From Candidatus Harrisonbacteria bacterium (GTDB taxonomy: Bacteria > Patescibacteriota > Minisyncoccia > UBA6257 > 02-FULL-45-10c): 64,000 nt of DNA. Each line of letters opens with the position of its first letter. Positions within the stretch are counted from its first letter, which is position 1. Of this stretch, positions 3,770 through 56,024 are shown piece after piece. Where the stretch lies: assembly GCA_016214655.1 (NCBI GenBank), contig JACROC010000005.1:131078-195077 (forward strand), written 5' to 3'. A model generated the notes under the pieces. That model was not told the origin of the DNA. It saw only the letters and a list, made by a program, of their open reading frames with translations, and ran no database searches. Position numbers and translations under genes: made by a program.

Positions 3770-4152
3770 TTCCAAAGCCATTCTTTCCAATCTTTCGGCC
3801 AGCCGATGAACAGAAGCAGTGCAAGCGGAGCACCCCAATTTGCCCATCGTTCAACGAAATCCCAAACAGGCATTCCCACCAACGGACGCAAAAGCGCAGT
3901 CCAAAAACCCCAAAGAGTCATCCACAGAAGTGCAAGCGGCACTGGTCTAACTAAAACTAGAATTGCCAGCAAAACATCCATGACGCCAATCCAAAATAAT
4001 AAAGTTCCGGCAGTACCAGGATCCGCAACGCCAAATTGCGCAAACCAGCCAATCCAGTCTTTTTTGCCCTGCAAAGCAAACACGCCGTGACCTAAAAATT
4101 CTCCGGCCACAGCAACGCGTAATACCCACTCTGCCTTTTTGAATGAATCCAT
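3766..4152 (-). CDS. small 4-TM membrane protein (DoxX-like?)
   Basis: 128 aa, four hydrophobic helices, translationally coupled to the downstream gene. Confidence 0.45.
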   Translation of the reverse strand: MDSFKKAEWVLRVAVAGEFLGHGVFALQGKKDWIGWFAQFGVADPGTAGTLLFWIGVMDVLLAILVLVRPVPLALLWMTLWGFWTALLRPLVGMPVWDFVERWANWGAPLALLLFIGWPKDWKEWLWK

Positions 4153-8126: not shown

Positions 8127-8984
8127 CTATTCGGTATAAATCTTTTGATGAACTTGGTGATTTCGCACTAAACGACCATCTTTTAAAGTAATGACTTGAT
8201 CCGCCTTTCCGGCAATATCTGCATCGTGAGTTATGATAATTAAAGTTTTTTTCTGAATTTTATTCAGATTAACCAGCATTTCTAAAATTTTATTGCCAGT
8301 TGCAGAATCCAAATTTCCAGTCGGCTCATCACCTAAAATTATTTTCGGGTCATTAGCCAAGGCCCGAAGCAACGCAGTCCGCTGCTGTTCGCCGCCAGAT
8401 AATTCAAAGGGGCGATGCGTCATCCGCTCCTTCAAGCCAGCCTCCCGGAAATTCGCCTCCAATCTGCTCTCATCAATCTTTGTCCCGGCAAATACCAGCG
8501 GCAAAATCACATTTTCATAAGCGGTCAGCCAGGGTATTAAATTATATTGTTGGAAAACAAAGCCAAAAACACTGGAACGAAGCTCAGCGCGTTCTTCATC
8601 CGAGAACAAAGAAATATCTTTTCCTTTAAAAAAAATTTTACCGGAAGTCGGGCGATCCAAGAGTCCAATCATATTCAAAGCTGTGCTTTTTCCGGAACCG
8701 CTGGCGCCAATGATAGAAACAAAATCTCCTTCCCAAACATGGAGATCCAATCCCTGCAATGCCATAGTTTCCGCCTTGCCGGTATTAAATACCTTCCACA
8801 CCGCACTTAGACGGATCAATGGTTCGCCCAGGAATTTTTCCGGATTTTTTTTAAACCGGCCCCCACATCCCCCGCTGCAAAAATAAACCGATTTCCCCTT
8901 ACGAATAATAGTAATAAGATCGGAAAATTCCGCGAGATCCATTCCGCAAACAGGATCAATTTTTTGATCAGACCATCCGCTCAT
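8127..8984 (-). CDS. ABC transporter ATP-binding protein (MacB/LolD type) with an N-terminal YHS/TRASH metal-binding domain
   Basis: Walker A GASGSGKST, signature LSGGEQQR, Walker B IILGDEPT. The N-terminal 50 aa are DPVCGMDL...YFCSGGCGGRFKKNPEKF. Confidence 0.85.
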   Translation of the reverse strand: MSGWSDQKIDPVCGMDLAEFSDLITIIRKGKSVYFCSGGCGGRFKKNPEKFLGEPLIRLSAVWKVFNTGKAETMALQGLDLHVWEGDFVSIIGASGSGKSTALNMIGLLDRPTSGKIFFKGKDISLFSDEERAELRSSVFGFVFQQYNLIPWLTAYENVILPLVFAGTKIDESRLEANFREAGLKERMTHRPFELSGGEQQRTALLRALANDPKIILGDEPTGNLDSATGNKILEMLVNLNKIQKKTLIIITHDADIAGKADQVITLKDGRLVRNHQVHQKIYTE

Positions 8985-11280: not shown

Positions 11281-11541
11281 TTATAAACGGTTATATAACG
11301 AAGCAAAAAGCCAGCCGCCTAGGTAAGAATAAACTACCGCCTGAATAAGTCCAGCCACAAATCCCCCGAAGGTTACAGCTACATCACCGGCAAACTTATC
11401 TACATTTACCAGATGAACTAACCAACCGAACGATTGCAAAGAAAACTCTGGCCATAAATACACAAATGCGGCGCAAATTAAATAGACAATACCCATTCCT
11501 AATGCAGCGGCTTTCGCAAATTTTGAAACATCTAATTGCAT
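11281..11541 (-). CDS. small membrane protein
   Basis: 86 aa with 2-3 TM helices, in an operon. Confidence 0.4.
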   Translation of the reverse strand: MQLDVSKFAKAAALGMGIVYLICAAFVYLWPEFSLQSFGWLVHLVNVDKFAGDVAVTFGGFVAGLIQAVVYSYLGGWLFASLYNRL

Positions 11542-31925: not shown

Positions 31926-34289
31926 TCACTTGCCGTGACATCTCTTATATTTCTTTCCACTACCGCAAGGACACGGATCATTGCGCCCAACTTTGCCCGC
32001 CGTGGCCTTAACGAAAGCAGGCTTTATATTCATTTGTAAGTCTCCCGAGTGCTGTTCCTGTGTCTGGATTGGCTTTGGTGCGTGTTTATGTTCTGCTGCA
32101 GCTTGCGCAATGCGTTCTTTATTTTCTTCCATCCATTTATCAAAATCGGCTAACAATTGATCATATAACATCCGGCTTTCTCGGCGATATTCTACCAGAG
32201 GATCATGCTGGCCATAAGCTCTCAAACGTACGGATTCCCTAAGCGCCTCAATATTTTCCAGATGATTCATCCAAAGCATATCCAGCATCATCAGCACTTG
32301 AGGTTGCGTACCGTCTTCCAGCATTTTTTGTCTTTTTTCATAAATAGCCGTACGTTGTTTATTAAAAATATCATCATATTCAAGCAAGTGCTTACGCGCA
32401 TCAAAATTAAAACCCTCCACCCTACTTTGCGCCTGCGTAACAGCTTTAGACACCAATCCTGATTCAATCGGCATATCCTCCGGCACATCCAAAGTTTCCA
32501 TCAGGCTTTTAATCCGGTCCCCGCCGAAAATACGCATAAGATCATCTTCTACCGACAAAAAGAATTGAGAGGAGCCAGGATCGCCTTGGCGCCCGGAACG
32601 GCCGCGAAGCTGATTATCAATGCGCCGCGCGTCATGCCTTTCCGTACCAATCACATGAAGCCCGCCAAGCGTTTTCACTTTTTCTGATTCTAAAATATCC
32701 GGCGGATTCCCGCCTAAAATGATATCCACGCCCCGGCCGGCCATATTAGTTGCAACCGTCACTGATCCGGCTCTGCCAGCCTGCGCAATAATTGCGCCTT
32801 CACGTTCATTGTTTTTGGCATTCAACACTTCATGCCGCACCCCTTCTCGATTCAAATACTGCGACAATAATTCGTTTTTCTCTATTGAGATAGTACCGAT
32901 AAGAACCGGTTGTCCCTGTTTCTGTTTTTCTTTTACTTCCTTGGCTACGGCCTGAAATTTGGCATCGGCGGTTTTATAAATAACATCCGGCAAATTTTTA
33001 CGCTGAACGGGCTTATTAGTCGGAATCGTCACTGCCGGAAGCCCATAAACTTTATCAAACTCTTCAGCTGAAGTTTGGGCAGTGCCAGTCATGCCGGCCA
33101 ATTTTTTATACAAACGAAAATAGTTTTGAATAGTGATCTGCGCGTAAGTACGCGATTCTTGCTGAACTCGCACTCCTTCCTTAGCTTCAATCGCCTGATG
33201 CAATCCGCCGGAATAGCGCCGGCCGAGCATCAAACGGCCAGTATTTTGATCAACAATAATAATTTCGTTATCTTTAACTACGTAATCCTTATCACGCTTG
33301 AAAAGAGCATGTGATTTTAAACTTTCTTCCAGATAATGCGTCAATCTCAAATTTTCCGGCGCGTAAATATTATCTATCCGCAACGCCTTTTCAACTCTAT
33401 CAATTCCCGCTTCGGTAATATCCACCGAACGGTACTTCTCGTCCACAATATAATCTTCGTCTTTTTGCAATGAAGCGGCTAACCGTGAAAAAGTTTTATA
33501 AAGTTCGCTGGATTCTGTGTCCGGCGCGGAAATAATAAGCGGAGTGCGCGCTTCATCAATCAAAATACTGTCAATTTCATCAACGATCGCATAGTTATTT
33601 CCTCGGTATTGTACCTGCTGTTCTTTGGAATACGCTAAATTATCCCTTAAATAATCGAACCCAAATTCATGGTTAGTTCCGTAAGTAATGTCCGCAAAAT
33701 AGGCATCTCTCCGGGAGATCGGCCGAAGATATTCCTGCTGGACTAAAAAACTGCCGGTGGTATCCCGTTCTTTATCCACTAACTTTTCTGCATCTTGGGC
33801 AATGTATGCCGGATCATAGATAAAAGCTCCTTCGTGCACCAGACAGGCCACACTTAATCCCAGAAAATTATAAATCTGTCCCATCCACACCGCGTCTCTT
33901 TTAGCCAAATACTCGTTTACTGTTACTACGTGTACTCCTTTACCCTCAAGCGCATTCAAATAAACCGGCGCCGTAGAGGCCAAAGTCTTACCTTCACCAG
34001 TAGACATCTCGGCAATTTTTCCTTCATGCAAAACCATGCCGCCTATCAATTGAACGTCAAAATGCCGCTGGCCCAAAGTGCGCTTAGCGGCTTCCCGGAC
34101 TAAAGCAAAAGCCCTTGGCAAAAGACCATCTAAGTCAGAACCACCCTGCGCTGAATTCCGCAGTTTATTGCCTTCCTCCCGGATTTGAACATCAGTTAGT
34201 TTTGATATTTCCAGCTCCAGTGCATTGATTTCCCCAACTTGTTTCTCTAATTTTTTTGTCGGATTAAACAGAAAATTCAACAATCGCAT
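31926..34289 (-). CDS. secA: preprotein translocase ATPase SecA
   Basis: MSTGEGKT Walker A, DEID/DEAR box, [10 protein letters not shown], and the C-terminal zinc motif [14 protein letters not shown]. Confidence 0.95.
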
Positions 34290-36826: not shown

Positions 36827-37056
36827 AAAAAAACACCCTAACTTTAAAAGCTGGGGTTCGGTATTATAGTATATTCAAATTTTTGGCTGATTTTCCGTGT
36901 TGTCGTAGAGAAACTACGGAACGCCGGCGCAGCTTGGTACTCCGACTTTAGTCGGAGACCGCCGGCGTGAGGCGTAGCGGGCTCTCGCCGCTGGAGCGAG
37001 AGAACCGCGGTTCTCATAGACAATCCGGTAAAGCAGCCATCTTCAATAATCGAACA
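36827..37056 (-). ncRNA. candidate GC-rich structured RNA downstream of the gtrA-like gene (family unknown)
   Basis: Four or five strong hairpins in an AT-rich genome: GAGAAC-CGCG-GUUCUC, CUCUCGC-N7-GCGAGAG, CGCCGGCG[..CUCCGAC-UAAA-GUCGGAG..]CGCCGGCG and CGUAG-N5-CUACG. A terminator with a U7 run follows at 36827-36857. Confidence 0.3.
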
Positions 37057-37650
37057 CTACCTCTTAAAAACAACAAACTTCATACCGATAAAATTCCAAA
37101 AAAGCGCAGTAACAGATGCAGTTACCGCACCCACATTTGCCCAAATCGTTTCGCTGATTCCCGGCGGCGCCCCAACCAAATTAACCACTGCCGAAGCTAC
37201 GCTGACATTAATTCCAAAGCCAATTAAGTTAACAGCAATAAACTTAGTAAATTCAACTGCTTGCGGCGCGCCCTCCACGTGAAAAGTCCAATACTTATTC
37301 CAGAAATAACTGTTAATAACAGCAAGAACAAACGAAGTTGCCTTAAAAGCGGTGTAGAAGTAACCAACGCTGATACCCGACAGAAAAATCAAAAAATTCA
37401 GCACCGCAAGATCAATAGTAAAATTCAGTCCGCCGACAATCGCAAATTTGATAAATTGCAGCATTACTGGCCACCATTGGCTTAACCAATAAGCCGCCGC
37501 ATAACCAGCGGGAGTAAGTACTGTTAAACCAACAATACTAATAGCTACAGAAGATAAATTAAATTGGACACCAAGGTTGCGCAACGTCGGCAAAAGCAGA
37601 ACGCCAGCCATGAAACCAACCAGCACGCTGATCTGAAAATCTTTTTTCAT
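37057..37650 (-). CDS. GtrA-family membrane protein
   Basis: FIKFAIVGGLNFTIDLAVLNFL motif and four TM helices. Confidence 0.75.
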   Translation of the reverse strand: MKKDFQISVLVGFMAGVLLLPTLRNLGVQFNLSSVAISIVGLTVLTPAGYAAAYWLSQWWPVMLQFIKFAIVGGLNFTIDLAVLNFLIFLSGISVGYFYTAFKATSFVLAVINSYFWNKYWTFHVEGAPQAVEFTKFIAVNLIGFGINVSVASAVVNLVGAPPGISETIWANVGAVTASVTALFWNFIGMKFVVFKR

Positions 37651-38426: not shown

Positions 38427-39165
38427 TCACATTCACAGTCACCTCTTGACTGCCCGATTCAATACTCGGGGCCTTGGCTGCCGCAAAAGCGCCTCCGCGG
38501 CCAAATGTCTCATAAACAGGTATTGGGGGCGGATACCCGCCGGCAGACTCGGAAAAAGTCACTACCCGGCCTATCCGGACCCGATTTTGTTTTGCCATCT
38601 CTTTAGCTTTGATAGATGCTTTTTCAAAAGCTTCTTCCCTGGCTACTTTCAGATATTTATCCGGCTCATCAATATTAAAGTTCAGCGATCCAATCTGGTT
38701 AATACCCAATTCCGGCAAGGAGCCTAAAATTTTACCAATTTTAGAAAAATTGCGTATCTTCACCAAAACGGTTTGCGTTAAAGTATAGCCGCTGATAAAA
38801 GTTTTCTTCGCCTTTTCATCATATTCATAACGCGGAAACAAATTATATCCGACAGTCTTTACATCTTTATCCGCAACGCCTTGTTCTTTTATAAATTGAA
38901 TTGTGGTATTCATTGTTTTATTATTCTCATCCGCAATTTTCTCAGGATCTGCTCCCTCGCTTACTACCGAAAATGTAAAAGTTGTTACATCCGGAGAAAC
39001 CGTGGTTTTACCTTCCGCGCTGACTATTAAAGTCCGTGACGGATATAAAGATCCCTGATATTTATAAAGCGTTTTCAAAGAAGACAGCCCTAATAAAATT
39101 AATACTAATAAAGACGCGTTGACCAACCACCAAAACCAATTTTTTAATTTCTCTGGATTAAACAT
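38404..39165 (-). CDS. SIMPL (DUF541) domain protein
   Basis: Signal-anchor and the periodic pattern of 26-kDa periplasmic immunogenic-protein-like proteins (GYTLTQTVLVKIRNF..., VTVNVSVTYEI). Confidence 0.65.
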   Translation of the reverse strand: MFNPEKLKNWFWWLVNASLLVLILLGLSSLKTLYKYQGSLYPSRTLIVSAEGKTTVSPDVTTFTFSVVSEGADPEKIADENNKTMNTTIQFIKEQGVADKDVKTVGYNLFPRYEYDEKAKKTFISGYTLTQTVLVKIRNFSKIGKILGSLPELGINQIGSLNFNIDEPDKYLKVAREEAFEKASIKAKEMAKQNRVRIGRVVTFSESAGGYPPPIPVYETFGRGGAFAAAKAPSIESGSQEVTVNVSVTYEIR

Positions 39166-39877
39166 AAGAAATCATTTTTTTTACTTCTTCTTTTTTCAGA
39201 CTGGCGCCGCCGACAAGGGCGCCGTCCACCTCCTTATATTTTAAGTAGTCTCTTAGATTTCGGGAATCAACTGAACCGCCGTACAATATTTTAGGGTTTA
39301 GGGTATAGGGTTTAGCGTTCAGGATCTTTCTGATATATTTTATAGTTTCTAATGCTGATTCTGGGGTTTCGGGATTGCCAGTGCCGATTGCCCAAACAGG
39401 TTCATAAGCTACGATAAAAGGGTTTAGGGTATAGGGTCTAGGGTATAGAAAGAGGCCAATTTTTAATTGGCGCTCGATTACTGCTTCTTTTTTGCCAGCA
39501 TTTTTTTCTTCAATAGTTTCGCCAACGCAAAGAACCGGGATCAGTTTATTCTCGGCGGCGGCTTTCATTTTTTTAGCTACCATTTCATCTGTTTCATCAA
39601 ACTTATGCCGGCGCTCTGAATGGCCAATGATAACGTATTTCACCCTAACGCTTTTAAGTTCTTTTGCTGAAACTTCTCCGGTAAAAGCGCCTTTTTCTTC
39701 GTAAAAAAGATCTTGGGCTCCCAGCCGAGATTTTTTTAAAACTTTTCCTACTTCTTCCAAAAAAGGAAATGGCGGCGCCACTACGACATTTTTATAATCA
39801 CTGGCTTTTGCCAAAGAAAGCGCCTCTTTGAGAGTGGCTGGATTCATTTTCCAGTTTAAAATCAGCAGCTTTGTCAT
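39158..39877 (-). CDS. tpiA: triose-phosphate isomerase
   Basis: NWKMN, IIGHSERR and AYEPVWAIGTG motifs. Confidence 0.9.
   Translation of the reverse strand: MTKLLILNWKMNPATLKEALSLAKASDYKNVVVAPPFPFLEEVGKVLKKSRLGAQDLFYEEKGAFTGEVSAKELKSVRVKYVIIGHSERRHKFDETDEMVAKKMKAAAENKLIPVLCVGETIEEKNAGKKEAVIERQLKIGLFLYPRPYTLNPFIVAYEPVWAIGTGNPETPESALETIKYIRKILNAKPYTLNPKILYGGSVDSRNLRDYLKYKEVDGALVGGASLKKEEVKKMISYV
39292..39315. repeat. G-tract heptamer repeat copy inside tpiA (encodes KPYTLNPK)
   Basis: The plus strand reads AGGGTTTAGGGTATAGGGTTTAG. Confidence 0.8.
39419..39449. repeat. G-tract heptamer repeat copy inside tpiA (encodes YPRPYTLNPF)
   Basis: The plus strand reads GGGTTTAGGGTATAGGGTCTAGGGTATAG, with four GGG tracts spaced by 4 nt. 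Confidence 0.8.
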
Positions 39878-39926: not shown

Positions 39927-41001
39927 TTAATTTCGTAAAGAAAACCAAACCTCATTTAAAAGTCTCTCGCGTAACTCATAAGTGTTAGCATGAGACAAAG
40001 CGCCAAGATAAGATTGTAATGATTGTTCAAGTGTTATTTTAGTAATATATCCTAGGTTATATTCTTTGATGCGTTTCCGTATTTTTGTAAATATGCGATG
40101 TTTTGTCTTGATTCGTATCAACCGATACTTTGGAAATATCACATGGCCAAGAAAATCAATGCCTTGATGTAACTTACGAATTATGATTTTCTTTGGATGT
40201 AGCTCCAAAGCAAGTTTCGTCTCAAGAAACTCATTGATCTGCGGCAAAAATTTTTCTAAATAATCCTGATTTTTCGAAACAATAACAAAATCATCGGTAT
40301 AGCGAATATAGTATTTTACTTTTAACCTATGTTTCATAAACTGATCAAATTCGTTCATATAGATATTGGCGAAAAGCTGCGAAGTCAAATTCCCTATCGG
40401 AATACCTTGCGCGGCGATTCTACTCTCTCTCTCTCTCTCTCTCTCGGGCAAACGTCACGCTTTTATAACTTTCAATAATAGATTCCAGAAGCCAAATGGT
40501 GTCACTATCTTTGATACGCTTTTTGATGATGGAAAGCAGGGTTACGTGATCAACGCTGTCAAAAAACTTCCTAATATCGCATTTCAATATAAAGCAAGGA
40601 TTGGCGCCATTCTTACTGACCTTTCTCACTGCTCTTTCCAAAGCTTCCACGCCTCTATGAGTTCCGTAACCGATGCGACAGGAAAACGAGGTAGAAATAA
40701 AGGTCGATTCAAAAATCGGATTGATAATCGAGAAAATAGCATGGTGCAGAACACGATCCCGAACTACCGCTTTATGAATGTGCCGTTGTTTCGGATCCTG
40801 TATATAAAAACCGGTATATGGACCGTGTTGGTAAGTTTTATTTTTCAATTCTCGTTGAAGCTGAAAAATATTTTCCTCCAGATTCCATTCAAACCGAAGC
40901 GCATCAGATTTTTTCCGCTTATCGATTTTAAAAGCCTCCCAGGCTGAAAAAAGATTCTCCGATGAAATAATTTTTGTAAACAGATTTTTATAAATTTTCA
41001 T
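39927..41001 (-). pseudogene. DGR-type reverse transcriptase, split into two ORFs by a frameshift in a (GA)11 tract
   Basis: ORFs 40420-41001 and 39927-40451 are contiguous RT halves. The N-terminus is LFSAWEAFKIDKRKK, followed by KCDIRKFFDSVDH, GIPIGNLTSQLFANIYMNEFDQF (DGR hallmark) and the catalytic RYTDDFVIV. The downstream half is offset by 1 nt. Confidence 0.85.
40423..40445. repeat. dinucleotide microsatellite (CT)11C on the plus strand, which is (GA)n on the RT coding strand
   Basis: Read directly. It encodes the RERERERE at the junction of the two RT ORFs. Confidence 0.95.
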
Positions 41002-41015
41002 AAATAATTACCACT

Positions 41016-41366
41016 ATGGATGACTTCGATATACCAATCTTTAAAAAATCATATGAGCTCTATAAGACCTTTTACGGATATCGGCTCATGGTCTCCAAAC
41101 AAGATCGCTATACCCTGTGGCAGCGCTGTGAAAATACTATTTTGGATCTCTTGGAAAACATCTTATTGGCCAGCCAATTATCCAAAGAAGCTAAATTGCC
41201 GGCATTGGAAAAATCCAGCCTGAAATTGAATCTCCTTCGGATTCTCCTCAGGCTTTCCAAAGAAACCAAGGCAATCGACAATAAAAAATATCTTTACTTG
41301 GAAGAAATAATAGATGAAATAGGCAGGATGCTCGGCGGCTGGATCAAATCCACCAAAGATCGCTAA
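41016..41366 (+). CDS. avd: Avd-like accessory variability determinant (four-helix-bundle protein)
   Basis: 116 aa, basic and all-helical. It has the typical pattern IPIFKKSYELYKTFY...DRYTLWQRCENTILDLLENIL.A......LRILLRLSKE...IDEIGRMLGGWIK. Confidence 0.8.
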   Translation: MDDFDIPIFKKSYELYKTFYGYRLMVSKQDRYTLWQRCENTILDLLENILLASQLSKEAKLPALEKSSLKLNLLRILLRLSKETKAIDNKKYLYLEEIIDEIGRMLGGWIKSTKDR

Positions 41367-41416: not shown

Positions 41417-41535
41417 ACTTCCGAGAGGCACCGAGACCAATGTTGTTCCACCTGTTGTCATCCCAGTTGTTGTTGACGTTCAGGCCATTGCCGTCGAAGT
41501 TGCCCACATTGACGCGGTTGCCGTCCGACGTGACA
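41417..41535 (-). repeat. DGR template repeat (TR)
   Basis: 119 bp that align without gaps to 41952-42070. The TR reading frame carries 11 AAC codons (VTSDGNRVNVGNFDGNGLNVNNNWDDNRWNNIGLGASRK). Confidence 0.85.
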
Positions 41536-41821
41536 AATTTGCTCGCCCCCGTCTTTGGCACTGAAAGTCGAGGTTTGCTGTCGCCTAAGGCGACTTATAT
41601 CCTCTTCTTTCTGAATTTTATTTAGGAGCACTCCGATGTTCATCGGAGACCTCCGCTAGAAGCAAGCAAGAAGTTCTGTTCTCCATCTTTATTCACACGC
41701 TATCGCACTCCGTAGAGATGCGACACTCTGGTGACGTCTCAAAGATGAGACATCTTGCGGGATTAAACCGTGGCCTAATCTACATTAGCAAGATATTTAT
41801 ATTGTAATAAATTTGTAGAAA

Positions 41822-41861
41822 TAAAAAAAGAAGCCCCCGGCGCAAAAATCGCGCCGGAGGC
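41822..41861 (-). terminator. rho-independent terminator of the DGR target gene
   Basis: The minus strand reads GCCUCCGGCGCgauuuuuGCGCCGGGGGCUUCUUUUUUU. Confidence 0.6.
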
Positions 41862-41905
41862 TCAAGAGTTCAAGAGAGACAATCCCTCCAGAACTCAAAC
41901 TTCAT

Positions 41906-41945
41906 CCTTCGACTTCGCTCAAGATGACCCTGAGCTTGTCGAAGG
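41906..41945 (-). promoter_or_regulatory. two-part hairpin immediately 3' of the VR
   Basis: CCTTCGAC-aa-GCTCA-gggtcatct-TGAGC-gaa-GTCGAAGG (minus strand), starting 1-2 nt after the target stop codon. Confidence 0.5.
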
Positions 41946-41946
41946 G

Positions 41947-42774
41947 TCAGAACTTCCGAGAGGCACCGAGACCAAGGGAGCCCCCCCTGCCGTCATCCCA
42001 GCCGCGGAAGACGAACAGGCCATCGCCGTCGAAGAAGCCCACAACGACGCGGTAGCCGTCCGACGTGACATCCGTGGTTCGCGCATACCTCGTCGGGTTC
42101 AGATAGATGCCGTTTTTCCGGTAATAGAGAATGTCCTTGAGGACTTCCTCTACTGCGGTCGGCACCTCGTACCCTTGAGGCAGCATAGCCACTTGGTCCT
42201 GGTAGGTCTTAGACTCGGAGTTCGGAACGATCTCCAGAGGCATCAGATACCACCGGAACTTCGCGGTCAGCTTGGTTGCCCAGGTTTGCTGAGAATACCA
42301 CGAACTGGGCGCGTAGCTTGCGAACTTTGGCTGGCCGTTTTGCGGATGCAGCTCCTGCAAGTGGAGGATGGTGAGCGGTTTCCCGTTCACGTTCTCGAGC
42401 CCCAGAAACGCGAAGTGCGTTTCTTTGACTGTCTTGCCTTTGACGAGCGGGCAAGGGGCGTTGAGAACATCCTCTCCCCACGGGAACTCAGCCACTTCTC
42501 GGAGCTGCTTCTTGGTGAACTTCACGCTGTACAGCGCGGTCCACTCTTCCACTCCGAAGAAGTTCTTGCCCTGAATGGCGCGAACCACCTGGTGATTCGC
42601 CGAACCCGACGCTTTGCCGCGAAGCATGAACTCGGCTACGCGTTTCGCGTAATCCGGCTCAGCCCGCAAGCGAGCGAGGTGCTCGGTTGAGACTCCGTGA
42701 TCCTGGAGCGCTTTCAAGGTCGCTCCGACTTCTCCGTAACTGGCTTTCCAGAGACCGCCTGGGTTTGTGCTCAT
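41947..42774 (-). CDS. DGR target (variable) protein, 275 aa, with no signal peptide
   Basis: GC-rich ORF with AGGAGG 8 nt upstream of the ATG. The C-terminal 40 aa (VTSDGYRVVVGFFDGDGLFVFRGWDDGRGGSLGLGASRKF) are encoded by the VR. Confidence 0.85.
   Translation of the reverse strand: MSTNPGGLWKASYGEVGATLKALQDHGVSTEHLARLRAEPDYAKRVAEFMLRGKASGSANHQVVRAIQGKNFFGVEEWTALYSVKFTKKQLREVAEFPWGEDVLNAPCPLVKGKTVKETHFAFLGLENVNGKPLTILHLQELHPQNGQPKFASYAPSSWYSQQTWATKLTAKFRWYLMPLEIVPNSESKTYQDQVAMLPQGYEVPTAVEEVLKDILYYRKNGIYLNPTRYARTTDVTSDGYRVVVGFFDGDGLFVFRGWDDGRGGSLGLGASRKF
41952..42070 (-). repeat. DGR variable region (VR)
   Basis: There are 22 mismatches to the TR. 21 of them fall where the TR coding strand has A, and all 11 TR AAC codons are changed. 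The one exception is T->G (TGG->GGG). An invariant 3' block GGTCTCGGTGCCTCTCGGAAGT is shared with the TR. Confidence 0.85.
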
Positions 42775-42971
42775 GACACTTACCTCCTTTGTTTTCCGTC
42801 TTTCTCTCTTTGTCTTTTGGAGACTTTAGAGAGTTTGCCCTGTCCGGGGCACGGCCTCATCTCGGTAATGAGACGAGTATTTTAAAAACCAATTTTTGAT
42901 TTCCAAAATACTCGTCTCATATGTTTCAGTTTCAAGGTACATCAATCCCGCACTTTGCGAGAATTAAAACA

Positions 42972-43001
42972 AAGATAGCATATTTAGTGCTATTTTGTCA
43001 A
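42972..43001 (-). promoter_or_regulatory. promoter of the DGR target gene
   Basis: The minus strand reads TTGACA-N18-TATCTT. The same TTGACAAAATAGC module occurs at 55823-55852. Confidence 0.5.
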
Positions 43002-52029: not shown

Positions 52030-53247
52030 TTAAGACAAGAGGAAGAGATATGTCTTAAAAACTTCGGGGCTACTCTTCACGTACATACAAAACCAATAAG
52101 TCAGTCCGGACATCACCAATCCCAACATCGCATAACCCCTCATACTTTCTACTGGTATCTCGGAAAGCTTCGTTAAAATGTAGAGAACAAAGAAAGTCCC
52201 TCCGATCTTCTGCAACTCGCCAATTCCATAAACTGAACCGAAGAACAGCGCCGCTACGCCCGCAGCAATAGTTATCATCTGAAACAGGATGTAATTGTAC
52301 CTCCGGTGGTCATACCACCGGGTAGAAGCAATCAAAAGACCCAGATAACCAACAAAACTGCCTAGAAAAAGAGAACCTCTTTCAAATATCTGAAACAATT
52401 GCGGATCTGCACCCGTCACTTTCACTGCCACGAAAAAAGTCAAAATAGCAAAAGCCACGGTTGTTGCCCGCCCCATAGCATCCTTATCATCAAATCCCAT
52501 TATTACTACAAACGGAAGAACAATCACCGCAAAACCAAGTAAGCCCATTAAGGCGCCGACAGAGATGAAACCGATAATCGCACTTTTATAAAGAAGTGCT
52601 ACGGCTGTCCATACCGCGAACAATATAGAAAAAACACCGGTAGGACTTCCTTTCCATTTACGGACACTGCGGGTAAAGAGCACTGCTCCGCCAAAACCAA
52701 GGCAACCAGTCAGTCCAACATATTGACCCACATCCGCTCCTAAGCTAGTGCCGTACCAAACCAGACCCAAACTCAACGCATAGAAAACTGATTCGTAAAG
52801 AATGGCAGGAATCTCCATTAACAACATCATTAAATCTTTAACAATCAATCCGAATAAATAAGAAAAACAAGCTACTCCGATGACAATTGCCAAGACCCAA
52901 AGGATATTTACAAAAGTGATCAGGCCAGCAAATCTCTGCAGCGGAGTAAGTTTTTGAACCGGCGCTAAAGTCGCATCTTCTAAAGAAAGTAAGTCTTCCA
53001 AAGATACCCGCTTCTTAACGAGTTTGGATGCTTGATCTAAATATTTCGCCGTGGCCAGAACTGACTCTTTCTGCGTGATTACTCCCGCGTCCGAAATTTC
53101 CTTAAGCACCAAAACAGACTGCTTCAGCGGAAGAAGCTGGCTGACTTCATATTCGCTAAATTGTGTTTTTTCCTGACCGGCAAAGCTATTACCGGTTATC
53201 AACAATAAAGCAATAAGCCACCCGCTCACTATCTGGATCGCCTTCAT
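52030..53247 (-). CDS. exported domain plus ~8-TM membrane protein
   Basis: 405 aa with a signal peptide, a ~100-aa soluble segment and a polytopic region. Confidence 0.5.
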   Translation of the reverse strand: MKAIQIVSGWLIALLLITGNSFAGQEKTQFSEYEVSQLLPLKQSVLVLKEISDAGVITQKESVLATAKYLDQASKLVKKRVSLEDLLSLEDATLAPVQKLTPLQRFAGLITFVNILWVLAIVIGVACFSYLFGLIVKDLMMLLMEIPAILYESVFYALSLGLVWYGTSLGADVGQYVGLTGCLGFGGAVLFTRSVRKWKGSPTGVFSILFAVWTAVALLYKSAIIGFISVGALMGLLGFAVIVLPFVVIMGFDDKDAMGRATTVAFAILTFFVAVKVTGADPQLFQIFERGSLFLGSFVGYLGLLIASTRWYDHRRYNYILFQMITIAAGVAALFFGSVYGIGELQKIGGTFFVLYILTKLSEIPVESMRGYAMLGLVMSGLTYWFCMYVKSSPEVFKTYLFLLS

Positions 53248-53388
53248 CGACTACCTCCTCTCAGTTTTCAACCGAGCTATCAACTCTGTTCTGGCTAGAT
53301 ATTATCATATAATTCTTCAGTTGTCAAAAATAAAAAACTGTGGTAATATACAAAACATTCACTTTAACAACCCGCGGAAAGGAGAAAT

Positions 53389-54869: not shown

Positions 54870-55089
54870 AATATTTTTACTACCCCACTATCTTATAAGA
54901 TAGTATTTATAAAATACAAATAAAATTTATAGTAAAAGTAATTTTTACTCTCGGAGTTGAATCTTATTTGGGATATTTAATCCTCCAGTTTTGCGCACCA
55001 ACTCTTATTTTTTAATCTGAAATCATGACACAAAAGCCGTAGCCGTTGCGTGATGCATAACTTCCTAATCAAGATATCAAATTAATGTA

Positions 55090-55127
55090 AAATAGAAAAC
55101 CCCTGCATACGCAAGCGTATGCAGGGG
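55090..55127 (-). terminator. rho-independent terminator of the GC-rich paralog
   Basis: CCCCTGCATACGC-aa-GCGTATGCAGGGG, followed on the minus strand by a U-rich run. Confidence 0.65.
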
Positions 55128-55157
55128 TCTGTCCTAGGAACCAAAGTCCCAAGGTTC

Positions 55158-55694
55158 CTAAGAGTTGCGGGAGAAGACCTGGAAGCCGTCGTACCACACG
55201 TACGGATTCTCAACCGAGATGGCATCGACGCTCCAGCCAGCGCTGCGCCAGCGGACGCTCACCGCCCAGAGAACTCCTTTGGCATCGCGGACATAGAAGA
55301 TGTTCGCGTAGCCATTGGTAAGGAGTTTTCCGGACTCGCCTTTGGGCTGCTTTTTGAGAAGCTCCCAGATGCTGGCTAGGGTGGTCTCCGCCTTATCTCC
55401 CAGTTCTGCCAGGATCGGCGCCTCCGGAGAGGCCTTCTTGAGCTTACTGATGCGGAGCTCGGTTTCGGCTTGCGGCTCCTCCACTTTAGCGAGGAAGTGC
55501 TGCCGGAAGTTGTCTCCGAGGTAGGCGATCTTTACCTTTTTGTTGGTCGTAGTGAGGTGGTCGCTGGCGACGAACCTGCCAGCAGACATAAGCCTAAACG
55601 CGCTAACGAATTCCAAGAACAGCGAGTCCCAAGTCTTCTCCTTGCGGAGAAACTTCTTGAACTCTCTCAGCCACTGCGCGCCTTCTTCGCTCAC
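55158..55694 (-). CDS. GC-rich paralog of the DGR target protein (no cognate TR)
   Basis: 178-aa ORF with a GTG start. Its C-terminus VSVRWRSAGWSVDAISVENPYVWYDGFQVFSRNS parallels the target's VVVGFFDGDGLFVFRGWDDGRGGSLGLGASRKF. The promoter and leader box are shared with 42925-43001. Confidence 0.55.
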   Translation of the reverse strand: MSEEGAQWLREFKKFLRKEKTWDSLFLEFVSAFRLMSAGRFVASDHLTTTNKKVKIAYLGDNFRQHFLAKVEEPQAETELRISKLKKASPEAPILAELGDKAETTLASIWELLKKQPKGESGKLLTNGYANIFYVRDAKGVLWAVSVRWRSAGWSVDAISVENPYVWYDGFQVFSRNS

Positions 55695-55822
55695 CAGCTT
55701 CGTTAAGAAGTCTGTGAACGGTCAACTACGTCTTGGAGCGTCAACCGAGTGTCTTCCATGACAGTCAGTCTCCTTGCTTCAGTTTTAAGGTACATCAATC
55801 AAGCCTAAGCCTGATCAAAATA

Positions 55823-55852
55823 ATAATAGCACGTTTTTAGCTATTTTGTCAA
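55823..55852 (-). promoter_or_regulatory. promoter of the GC-rich paralog
   Basis: The minus strand reads TTGACA-N18-TATTAT, followed by the shared box GATTGATGTACCTTAAAACTGAA (55778-55800). Confidence 0.5.
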
Positions 55853-56024
55853 ATCTGAAACTAGCCCTAAACCCTACAAACGTACGGCAAAAAATAGAGT
55901 AAGATACCCAAGAAAATTACCATTACTATGAGAAAAAAAGCCTTATCCATTGCGGAGGACGCAGTACGTAGAACGTAGCCCGTAGAATAAATAAACCTAT
56001 GAACTACTGCCTATGACCCGCGGA

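Follow-up and report, generated by a model that had tools for sequence, protein, structure and literature searches.

A probable stand-alone target gene of a diversity-generating retroelement in a Harrisonbacteria genome, and the promoter and leader box it shares with a target of another family

Examination of a 64-kb window of a Candidatus Harrisonbacteria genome (64,000 nucleotides of contig JACROC010000005.1, assembly GCA_016214655.1; "the window" below means this whole stretch, and unprefixed coordinates refer to it) reveals a small, GC-rich gene encoded by the open reading frame (ORF) 55158-55694(-), which we refer to as gene2. The window also contains a diversity-generating retroelement (DGR), whose target gene, at 41947-42774(-), we refer to as target1. 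Gene2 is probably a stand-alone copy of a DGR variable-protein gene, from a large Patescibacteria family whose proteins, about 200 aa long, have a C-type-lectin-like fold; the family of target1 is a different one. Its cognate template repeat (TR) and reverse transcriptase (RT) would lie, or would until recently have lain, elsewhere in the genome. A sequence-only reading of the window had described gene2 as a DGR-target-type gene lacking a TR match in the window, and this description is borne out by the TRs and RTs that accompany other members of its family and by the imprint present in its variable region (VR). The same reading took gene2 for a non-diversified paralog of target1, and in both respects the data point elsewhere. 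The features of gene2, from promoter to terminator, are as follows.

55823-55852, minus strand: sigma-70-type promoter, with the −35 TTGACA at 55852-55847, an 18-nt spacer ending in TGC (extended −10), and the −10 TATTAT at 55828-55823.
55778-55800, minus strand: 23-nt leader box GATTGATGTACCTTAAAACTGAA, the local form of the DGR-target leader motif RWWCYTT[GAT]AWA.
55703-55775, minus strand: ancestral translation start, with the Shine-Dalgarno (SD) sequence AAGGAG at 55775-55770 and an ATG at 55759, now opening an 18-codon ORF that runs to the TAA at 55705-55703.
55721-55724, minus strand: site of a 1-nt deletion that severs the first 13 codons, reading GTT-GAC as against CTCGGAC in L081, the locus of the closest homolog.
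55158-55694, minus strand: long ORF of gene2, 178 aa from a GTG at 55694, encoding a small DGR variable protein of predicted C-type-lectin fold; GC fraction at third codon positions (GC3) 0.76.
55159-55270, minus strand: VR of about 112 nt, whose variable codons coincide with AAC/AAT codons of family TRs.
55132-55163, minus strand: 11-bp hairpin beginning at the stop codon, in the position of a DGR target-site hairpin 3′ of the VR; −16.4 kcal/mol.
55089-55127, minus strand: intrinsic terminator, CCCCTGCATACGCTTGCGTATGCAGGGG followed by a T-run, forming the 3′ end of the cassette.

The VR carries the most direct evidence. When gene2 is compared with the best matching TR of its family (that of L001, from a foreign genome), 88 of 112 positions are identical, and the differences fall predominantly at template adenines: 16 of the 31 adenine sites of the TR are changed, as against 8 of 81 other sites (p 6e-6). 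The codons AGC, CGC, CGC, AGC, GAT, ATC, TAC, TAC and TTC are present in the VR where the TR has AAC or AAT. This bias toward TR adenines indicates that the VR was written by adenine-mutagenic retrohoming, and it speaks against the proposal that gene2 is non-diversified. The TR located in the window (41417-41535) gives no BLAST match to the gene2 VR, and the best that can be aligned is 39 nt at 64% identity, which is too poor for the local DGR to template gene2.

The family to which gene2 belongs has more than 270 homologs, essentially all of them in Patescibacteria and mostly 200–230 aa in length. Their alignment shows the C-terminal pattern VLWAVxxxWxGxGWxVxAxSVxxPxxWxxGxxVFSRNS, with hypervariable positions interleaved among invariant scaffold residues. 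We surveyed 80 gene2-related loci from GTDB genomes for the presence of a TR and an RT. In 35 of the 80 there is an imperfect copy of the last ~115 nt of the gene, positioned 270–380 nt downstream and corresponding to the TR, and nearly every mismatch between TR and VR falls on an adenine of that copy. An RT is present in 30 of the loci, is 41–58% identical to segments of the window RT, and usually starts 800–940 nt downstream; 43 of the 80 have neither a TR nor an RT within 10 kb. As a positive control, the same search also found the TR of the window itself. Because the family has its own adenine-mismatched TRs and its own RTs, and because the control worked, we regard it as a genuine and independent family of DGR variable proteins.

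The predicted structure is consistent with this assignment. An AlphaFold2 model of gene2 has a predicted local distance difference test score (pLDDT) of 89.9, and its fold matches C-type-lectin (CLec)/FGE-type domains, those of TvpA and Mtd included; in the model, the VR falls within a C-type-lectin-like fold. Searches of Pfam recover no domain in gene2 or target1, and sequence searches of the PDB recover no relative of either. The two proteins show no appreciable similarity to one another by BLASTP (E 7.7), and comparison of profiles built from 20 and 23 sequences gives an hhalign probability of 0.06%; the model of target1 is poor, with a pLDDT of 60 overall and below 50 in its VR. By these sequence comparisons the gene2 family is distinct from that of target1, and the earlier view of the two genes as paralogs gives way to one in which gene2 belongs to a different large family.

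What gene2 and target1 do have in common lies upstream of their coding regions, where target1 carries counterparts of two of the elements listed above.

42972-43001, minus strand: target1 promoter, TTGACA, an 18-nt spacer ending in TGC, and TATCTT.
42925-42947, minus strand: second copy of the 23-nt box, in the target1 leader, with 22 of 23 bases the same as in the gene2 copy.

Both promoters were found at the positions where the sequence-only reading had placed them, and they align in register: each consists of TTGACAAAATAGC, then the 18-nt spacer with its TGC end, then TATTAT in gene2 or TATCTT in target1. The sequence TTGACAAAAT is a common extended −35 in the window, present at four of eight minus-strand promoter-like sites, and the identity of the two promoters is thus partly generic, but the box is not. 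The earlier report that the box is shared also stands, since a scan permitting up to three mismatches finds just these two matches in the whole window, with 0 expected from shuffled sequences, and the box is thus unique to the two genes within it. The shared promoter and box would place gene2 under the same expression control as the active target1. At up to five mismatches there is no copy of the box in the 80 gene2-family loci, and when related loci are scanned at up to five or six mismatches a match is seen in L081 alone, where the closest gene2 homolog retains the box core TTGATGTACCTTAAAAC. The closest target1 homologs show TGTTCTTT(T/A)AAAT at the box position.

The box represents the local variant of a leader motif that is specific to DGR-target genes of two unrelated families. 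The motif RWWCYTT[GAT]AWA is present in 15 of 77 upstream regions of the gene2 family and in 16 of 45 of the target1 family, as compared to 2–3% of background windows. Of 91 promoter-like sites in front of DGR targets, 23 have the motif no more than 50 nt downstream of the −10, as compared to 3 of the 227 promoter-like sites elsewhere in these loci (odds ratio 25, p 4e-11). With this distribution, and with two copies of the box in the window, the idea that the box is simply a generic promoter element fails. Three leaders have short hairpins, differing in sequence, ahead of the box. The ATG inside the box, which is used as the start codon in the gene call for P0002 (the closest homolog), was considered and rejected, as it is not accompanied by an SD and the sequence downstream of it is not conserved as protein.

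Several other sequences are present in or near these leaders. Many gene2-family leaders bear a different long hairpin, GGTCATAGCGAAAAG...CTATGACC, unlike the hairpin of the target1 leader, and the sequence AGGGTTTAG is present upstream of both the gene2 and the target1 promoters. Another strong promoter-like site is located at 53250-53327(-), upstream of a 405-aa ORF (52030-53247) that is without a Pfam domain; after it comes GTTGAAAACTGAGAGGAGG, similar to the 3′ half of the box (TTRAAACTGAA) and lying right before an SD.

Comparison with L081 shows that what is conserved is a cassette and not a locus. The closest homolog, P0002, matches gene2 by blastn with 79% identity over 728 nt, and 86% of the columns in a MAFFT alignment are identical. 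This alignment spans the region from the box to the terminator, and the similarity stops just past the terminator. The neighbors in L081 are an SMC-like ATPase gene and rpsP, unlike those of gene2, which lies downstream of holB and mreB and upstream of a TrpR-like gene and frr. The gene2 cassette is self-contained and made up of a strong promoter, the leader box, an SD and ATG, the coding sequence, a stop-overlapping hairpin and a terminator. L081 has a hairpin at the equivalent place following the VR, with bases changed, and the counterpart in target1 is a 7-bp hairpin at 41925-41949; the 3′ ends of gene2 and target1 are otherwise only loosely alignable, as had been noted from the sequence. 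The 28-nt hairpin of the terminator is identical in L081 (8681-8719), although the coding regions are only ~79% identical. Conservation between gene2 and L081 is higher at the non-coding ends of the cassette than in the gene itself, despite the differing genomic contexts.

The 5′ end of gene2 is unusual, as the sequence-only reading pointed out, and its AAGGAG and its ATG at 55759 are both present. The short ORF that starts at this ATG encodes MEDTRLTLQDVVDRSQTS*, and AAGGAG-CTGAC-ATG is the start context typical of the family. The long ORF is in another frame and is not preceded by an SD. Re-insertion of a single G yields a 200-aa ORF beginning MEDTRLTLQDVVGPFTDFLTKLV..., which matches the N-termini of the homologs. 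Because the homologs have a continuous ORF and the window is missing one base relative to the closest of them, the 18-codon ORF is the severed true N-terminus and not a conserved upstream ORF (uORF); of the two explanations put forward earlier for this region, the frameshift holds, in the form of the 1-nt deletion relative to L081, and a uORF-coupled design does not. If the deletion is real, the gene2 protein would be lost, or would be made at a low level by restarting at GTG 55694, and the restart product would be without 22 poorly conserved N-terminal residues. It is also conceivable that the deletion has its source in an assembly error.

Gene2 and target1 share a striking compositional bias. 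The GC content of the window is 41.8% overall, and there are only two large GC islands, at 41801-42900 and 55051-55750, each peaking at 0.59 and coinciding with target1 and gene2, respectively (minor GC-rich patches of 0.52–0.53 in 300-nt windows occur at 32501-32850 and 36901-37200). GC3 is 0.76 in gene2 and 0.74 in target1; across the remaining 44 ORFs of 150 aa or more it ranges from 0.32 to 0.48. The observation that these two genes are far richer in GC than their surroundings is therefore borne out by both windowed GC and GC3. The same is seen across the gene2 family, where the genes have a mean GC of 55% (GC3 0.69), their flanks 43% and the adjacent RTs 40%, and the target1 family shows the same pattern. 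High GC3 is common to ~130 family members in hosts whose GC ranges from 32% to 61%, and the target gene ranks first in GC3 among the ORFs of its locus in 45 of 56 gene2-family loci and 12 of 16 target1-family loci (mean z 4.5–5.3).

Several simple sources of this bias were considered and ruled out. Amino-acid composition does not account for the GC excess, which is at third codon positions; avoidance of adenine alone does not, since in gene2 and target1 A and T are depleted equally at these positions; and a gradient extending from the VR does not, since GC3 is uniform along the gene. A single recent import is likewise ruled out by the family-wide occurrence of the bias, and, with the adjacent RTs being AT-rich, GC-richness loses its value as a sign of recent foreign origin, for which the earlier reading had proposed a test. 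Candidate explanations include biased gene conversion in multicopy genes that recombine often, or selection on the mRNA.

Whether gene2 is still an active remote target, diversified from elsewhere in the genome, is in our judgment evenly balanced. Cognate VRs at a distance are documented for the family in two other metagenome-assembled genomes (MAGs): in one, the TR of L005 pairs with the TR-less VR of L016, which is on a different contig, with 23 mismatches at A and 7 elsewhere, and in the other the TR of L054 pairs with the TR-less VR of L061, again on a different contig, with 11 mismatches at A and 3 elsewhere. Database proteins identical to those of the window have HZB99 locus tags, and the Harrisonbacteria MAG itself has a gene2 paralog (P0028; HZB99_03080, partial) on another contig. 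In the scaffold P0028 is identical to gene2 at 59 of 81 positions (73%; foreign homologs 75–84%), and in the VR at 24 of 33 (73%; foreign homologs 52–64%); a VR that is closer than its scaffold would be expected from a shared TR, albeit with small numbers. A number of observations weigh against gene2 as a functioning remote target, or against parts of the wider interpretation. The P0028 comparison comprises 33 VR residues and is not significant alone, and no cognate TR for gene2 was found within the 64-kb window. In a third MAG, which has several copies, two VRs that have no TR of their own fit the local TR poorly (L027 with 18 mismatches at A and 15 at other positions, L080 with 12 and 17), and, taken together with the L005–L016 and L054–L061 pairs, this shows that remote targets and true orphans both occur in the gene2 family. 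The gene2 frameshift points toward decay, and in the assembly the reading frame of the local RT is broken as well. The leader motif, which is degenerate, is present in only 20–35% of upstream regions, and the predicted 5′ hairpins are no stabler than shuffled sequence. A homolog search with the repaired RT is uninformative here, no second RT of this MAG being among the best 120 of 7,979 matches. Many of these same observations fit a fossil copy, in which the cognate TR and RT have been lost, the VR is frozen, the 1-nt deletion is the start of pseudogenisation and the promoter is a leftover. This is quite possible, if a little short of an even chance: it would account for the missing TR and the frameshifted start, for a local RT that is out of frame, for the 43 of 80 family loci with neither a TR nor an RT within 10 kb, and for TR-less copies such as L027 and L080 that fit their own genome's TR poorly. 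It is not what would be predicted from an intact 178-codon ORF with GC3 typical of the family, an intact target-site hairpin and a terminator the same as that of L081, or a promoter, box and SD that are all intact; nor from the greater likeness of the same-genome paralog in its VR than in its scaffold and the remote cognate VRs of the two other MAGs. A one-base indel in the consensus of a MAG could, besides, be erroneous or belong to a minority variant.

The remaining alternatives concern the origin of gene2 and the arrangement of its 5′ end. It could be a divergent paralog of target1, both genes descending from one ancestral variable protein and retaining a common fold and promoter while their sequence similarity eroded. 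The promoter and box common to both genes are in keeping with this, as are C-terminal VRs of ~115 nt that in each case end in ...SR(N/K)x and are followed by a stop-codon hairpin, and the leader motif, GC3 bias and related RTs shared by the families (the window RT being 41–58% identical to RT segments adjacent to gene2-family genes). We nonetheless consider it unlikely, given the BLASTP and hhalign results described above and given that each family is 50–85% identical internally across many lineages, such that any split would be ancient and not a within-genome paralogy; the target1 model, with its low pLDDT, is too poor for a structural comparison to be made. That gene2 is instead an unrelated, recently imported GC-rich gene, having only a generic strong promoter in common with target1, is effectively refuted. 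Its GC is far above that of the genome and TTGACAAAAT is indeed a common −35 form in the window, but the gene2 family has its own TRs and RTs and the gene2 VR bears the adenine-mutagenesis imprint, only these two genes of the window carry the box, whose underlying motif is DGR-target-specific, and high GC3 in ~130 members, in hosts of 32–61% GC and next to AT-rich RTs, is not the signature of a single import. Finally, the 18-codon ORF and the out-of-frame main ORF could represent a translational control device, either a programmed frameshift or a regulatory uORF, and the position of GTG 55694, just 8 nt past the stop codon of a short ORF that has both an SD and an ATG, is suggestive in this regard. 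This is highly improbable, because in the homologs a single uninterrupted ORF starts at the equivalent ATG and the window differs from the closest of them by one missing base; moreover, the sequence and the L081 alignment show no slippery heptamer or stimulatory structure (no dedicated search was made), and the NCBI model of 178 aa starts plainly at the GTG. A stand-alone DGR variable-protein gene, whether still served from elsewhere or a relic, thus remains the reading that we favor.

The DGR in the window, to which target1 belongs, has an organization with features of its own, and includes the following.

41947-42774, minus strand: target1 gene, 275 aa, with its VR at 41952-42070; GC3 0.74.
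41417-41535, minus strand: window TR, cognate to target1 only, with 21 of 22 TR–VR mismatches at TR adenines.
41016-41366, plus strand: bAvd-like accessory gene (Pfam PF22296, E 1.6e-15), on the strand opposite to the TR and RT.
39927-41001, minus strand: DGR RT, in two ORFs split by a (GA)11 tract at 40423-40445.
42775-42924, minus strand: structured 5′ leader of target1, conserved in the target1 family and absent from gene2.

The target1 leader (~150 nt) is predicted by RNAalifold to form 33 base pairs, 15 of them with compensatory changes, in an alignment that includes the upstream regions of L085–L134. It contains, in order, a long hairpin, ATGAGACGAG...CTCGTCTCAT, an ATGAGAC repeat, nested stems and the SD, and the ATGAGAC repeat could pair alternatively with the 3′ arm of the hairpin. 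Rfam searches return nothing at gathering thresholds in the window, and for the target1 leader they give chance miRNA-like hairpin matches only. The start codon of the avd gene is 14 nt from that of the RT, on the strand opposite to target1, TR and RT, so that a transcript running from the TR through the RT would be antisense to avd. L071 may share this layout of avd and RT, with a (TC)17 tract in the gap between them.

The (GA)11 tract at 40423-40445 is perfect, is the only dinucleotide repeat of at least six units in the window, and is located exactly at the break in the RT reading frame; addition of one GA unit restores an RT ORF of 358 aa. L060 has (GA)11 at the same RT position (2373-2394) and is also out of frame, and similar tracts lie just upstream of the RT in L005 ((GA)12, 11381-11404), L009 ((GA)12, 8422-8445) and L071 ((TC)17, 3936-3969). 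Four of the seven dinucleotide repeats of at least six units in the 80 gene2-family loci (1.18 Mb) are in or just upstream of DGR RT genes, and there are none in the 50 target1-family loci that were scanned. In the same RT loop, 6 of the 120 closest RT homologs (the best 120 of 7,979) have an in-frame (ER)3-5.5. These tracts suggest on/off phase variation of the mutagenic RT by slipped-strand mispairing, and a literature search returned nothing linking such variation with a DGR RT. Separately, L003 has a (GA)10 tract at 11367-11386, immediately behind the start of a gene that putatively encodes a small membrane protein, MKQNPQSNLQQS-(ER)n-...FFYTSLFFAILLLLTVIY, and whose downstream portion is in another frame; the gene, which is also from a Patescibacteria MAG, is a second candidate for phase variation. 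Beyond the RT, a TTTAGGG-like 7-nt unit forms two short tandem arrays, at 39290-39323 and 39419-39448, 126 nt apart, both falling inside the triosephosphate isomerase ORF (39158-39877), a housekeeping gene.

Three regularities seen here were not found in the DGR literature that was searched, namely that the target genes of two unrelated CPR families are extreme GC3 outliers in their genomes beside an AT-rich RT, that both families share a leader motif specific to DGR-target promoters, and that orphan copies are common, with roughly half of the gene2-family copies located away from any TR or RT. Should these hold true, remote and orphan targets in the candidate phyla radiation (CPR) would be far commoner than cassette-based surveys report, and expression signals together with codon bias could reveal DGR targets on contigs that lack a TR. 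A more speculative generalization, to which we give little weight at present, is that DGR target genes of unrelated families in Patescibacteria are self-contained cassettes that form a leader-motif regulon and persist and move independently of the RT, and that their GC3 excess would arise from a target-linked process acting on the whole gene (such as biased gene conversion linked to recombination or cDNA) rather than from horizontal transfer or amino-acid composition.

Gene2 is one more TR-less DGR target, a phenomenon that is already known. Targets that are not adjacent to their DGR have been documented, for example the additional targets of TvpA type that the DGR of Treponema denticola has (described in passages of PMC5758913), and it has been pointed out, in the relevant passages of Roux et al. 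2021 (PMC8144416), that remote targets are undetectable in fragmented metagenomes. Like those of T. denticola, gene2 has a C-terminal VR followed by a hairpin and is located away from an RT and TR, and TRs of its family match VRs on another contig with mismatches mostly at A sites. Unlike them, no cognate TR was found for gene2, and the DGR 13 kb away serves a family unrelated in sequence. The portions of Wu et al. 2018 (PMC5758913) drawn on here place remote targets only outside the CPR set, whereas those of the gene2 family appear in CPR MAGs. Neither survey (PMC5758913, PMC8144416) mentions, in the passages considered, a GC3 excess, a shared leader motif or cassette-like conservation. In its predicted fold, its C-terminal VR and its codons derived from AAC/AAT, gene2 resembles the CLec variable proteins Mtd (1yu0) and TvpA (2y3c) and those of archaea and Thermus (PMC5006420, PMC6328139). 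It differs from these in having no sequence similarity to solved structures and no Pfam domain, and in being very small, a single domain of ~200 aa annotated only as 'hypothetical protein'. CPR DGR targets without recognisable domains are themselves known from the parts of PMC5758913 and PMC8144416 that treat them, and it is to the Patescibacteria-restricted, domain-less targets found by compact TR–RT cassettes, as the 'UVR1-6' and ungrouped CPR VRs (PMC5758913) and CPR DGR clade 2 (PMC8144416) are described in those passages, that the gene2 family can by description be likened.

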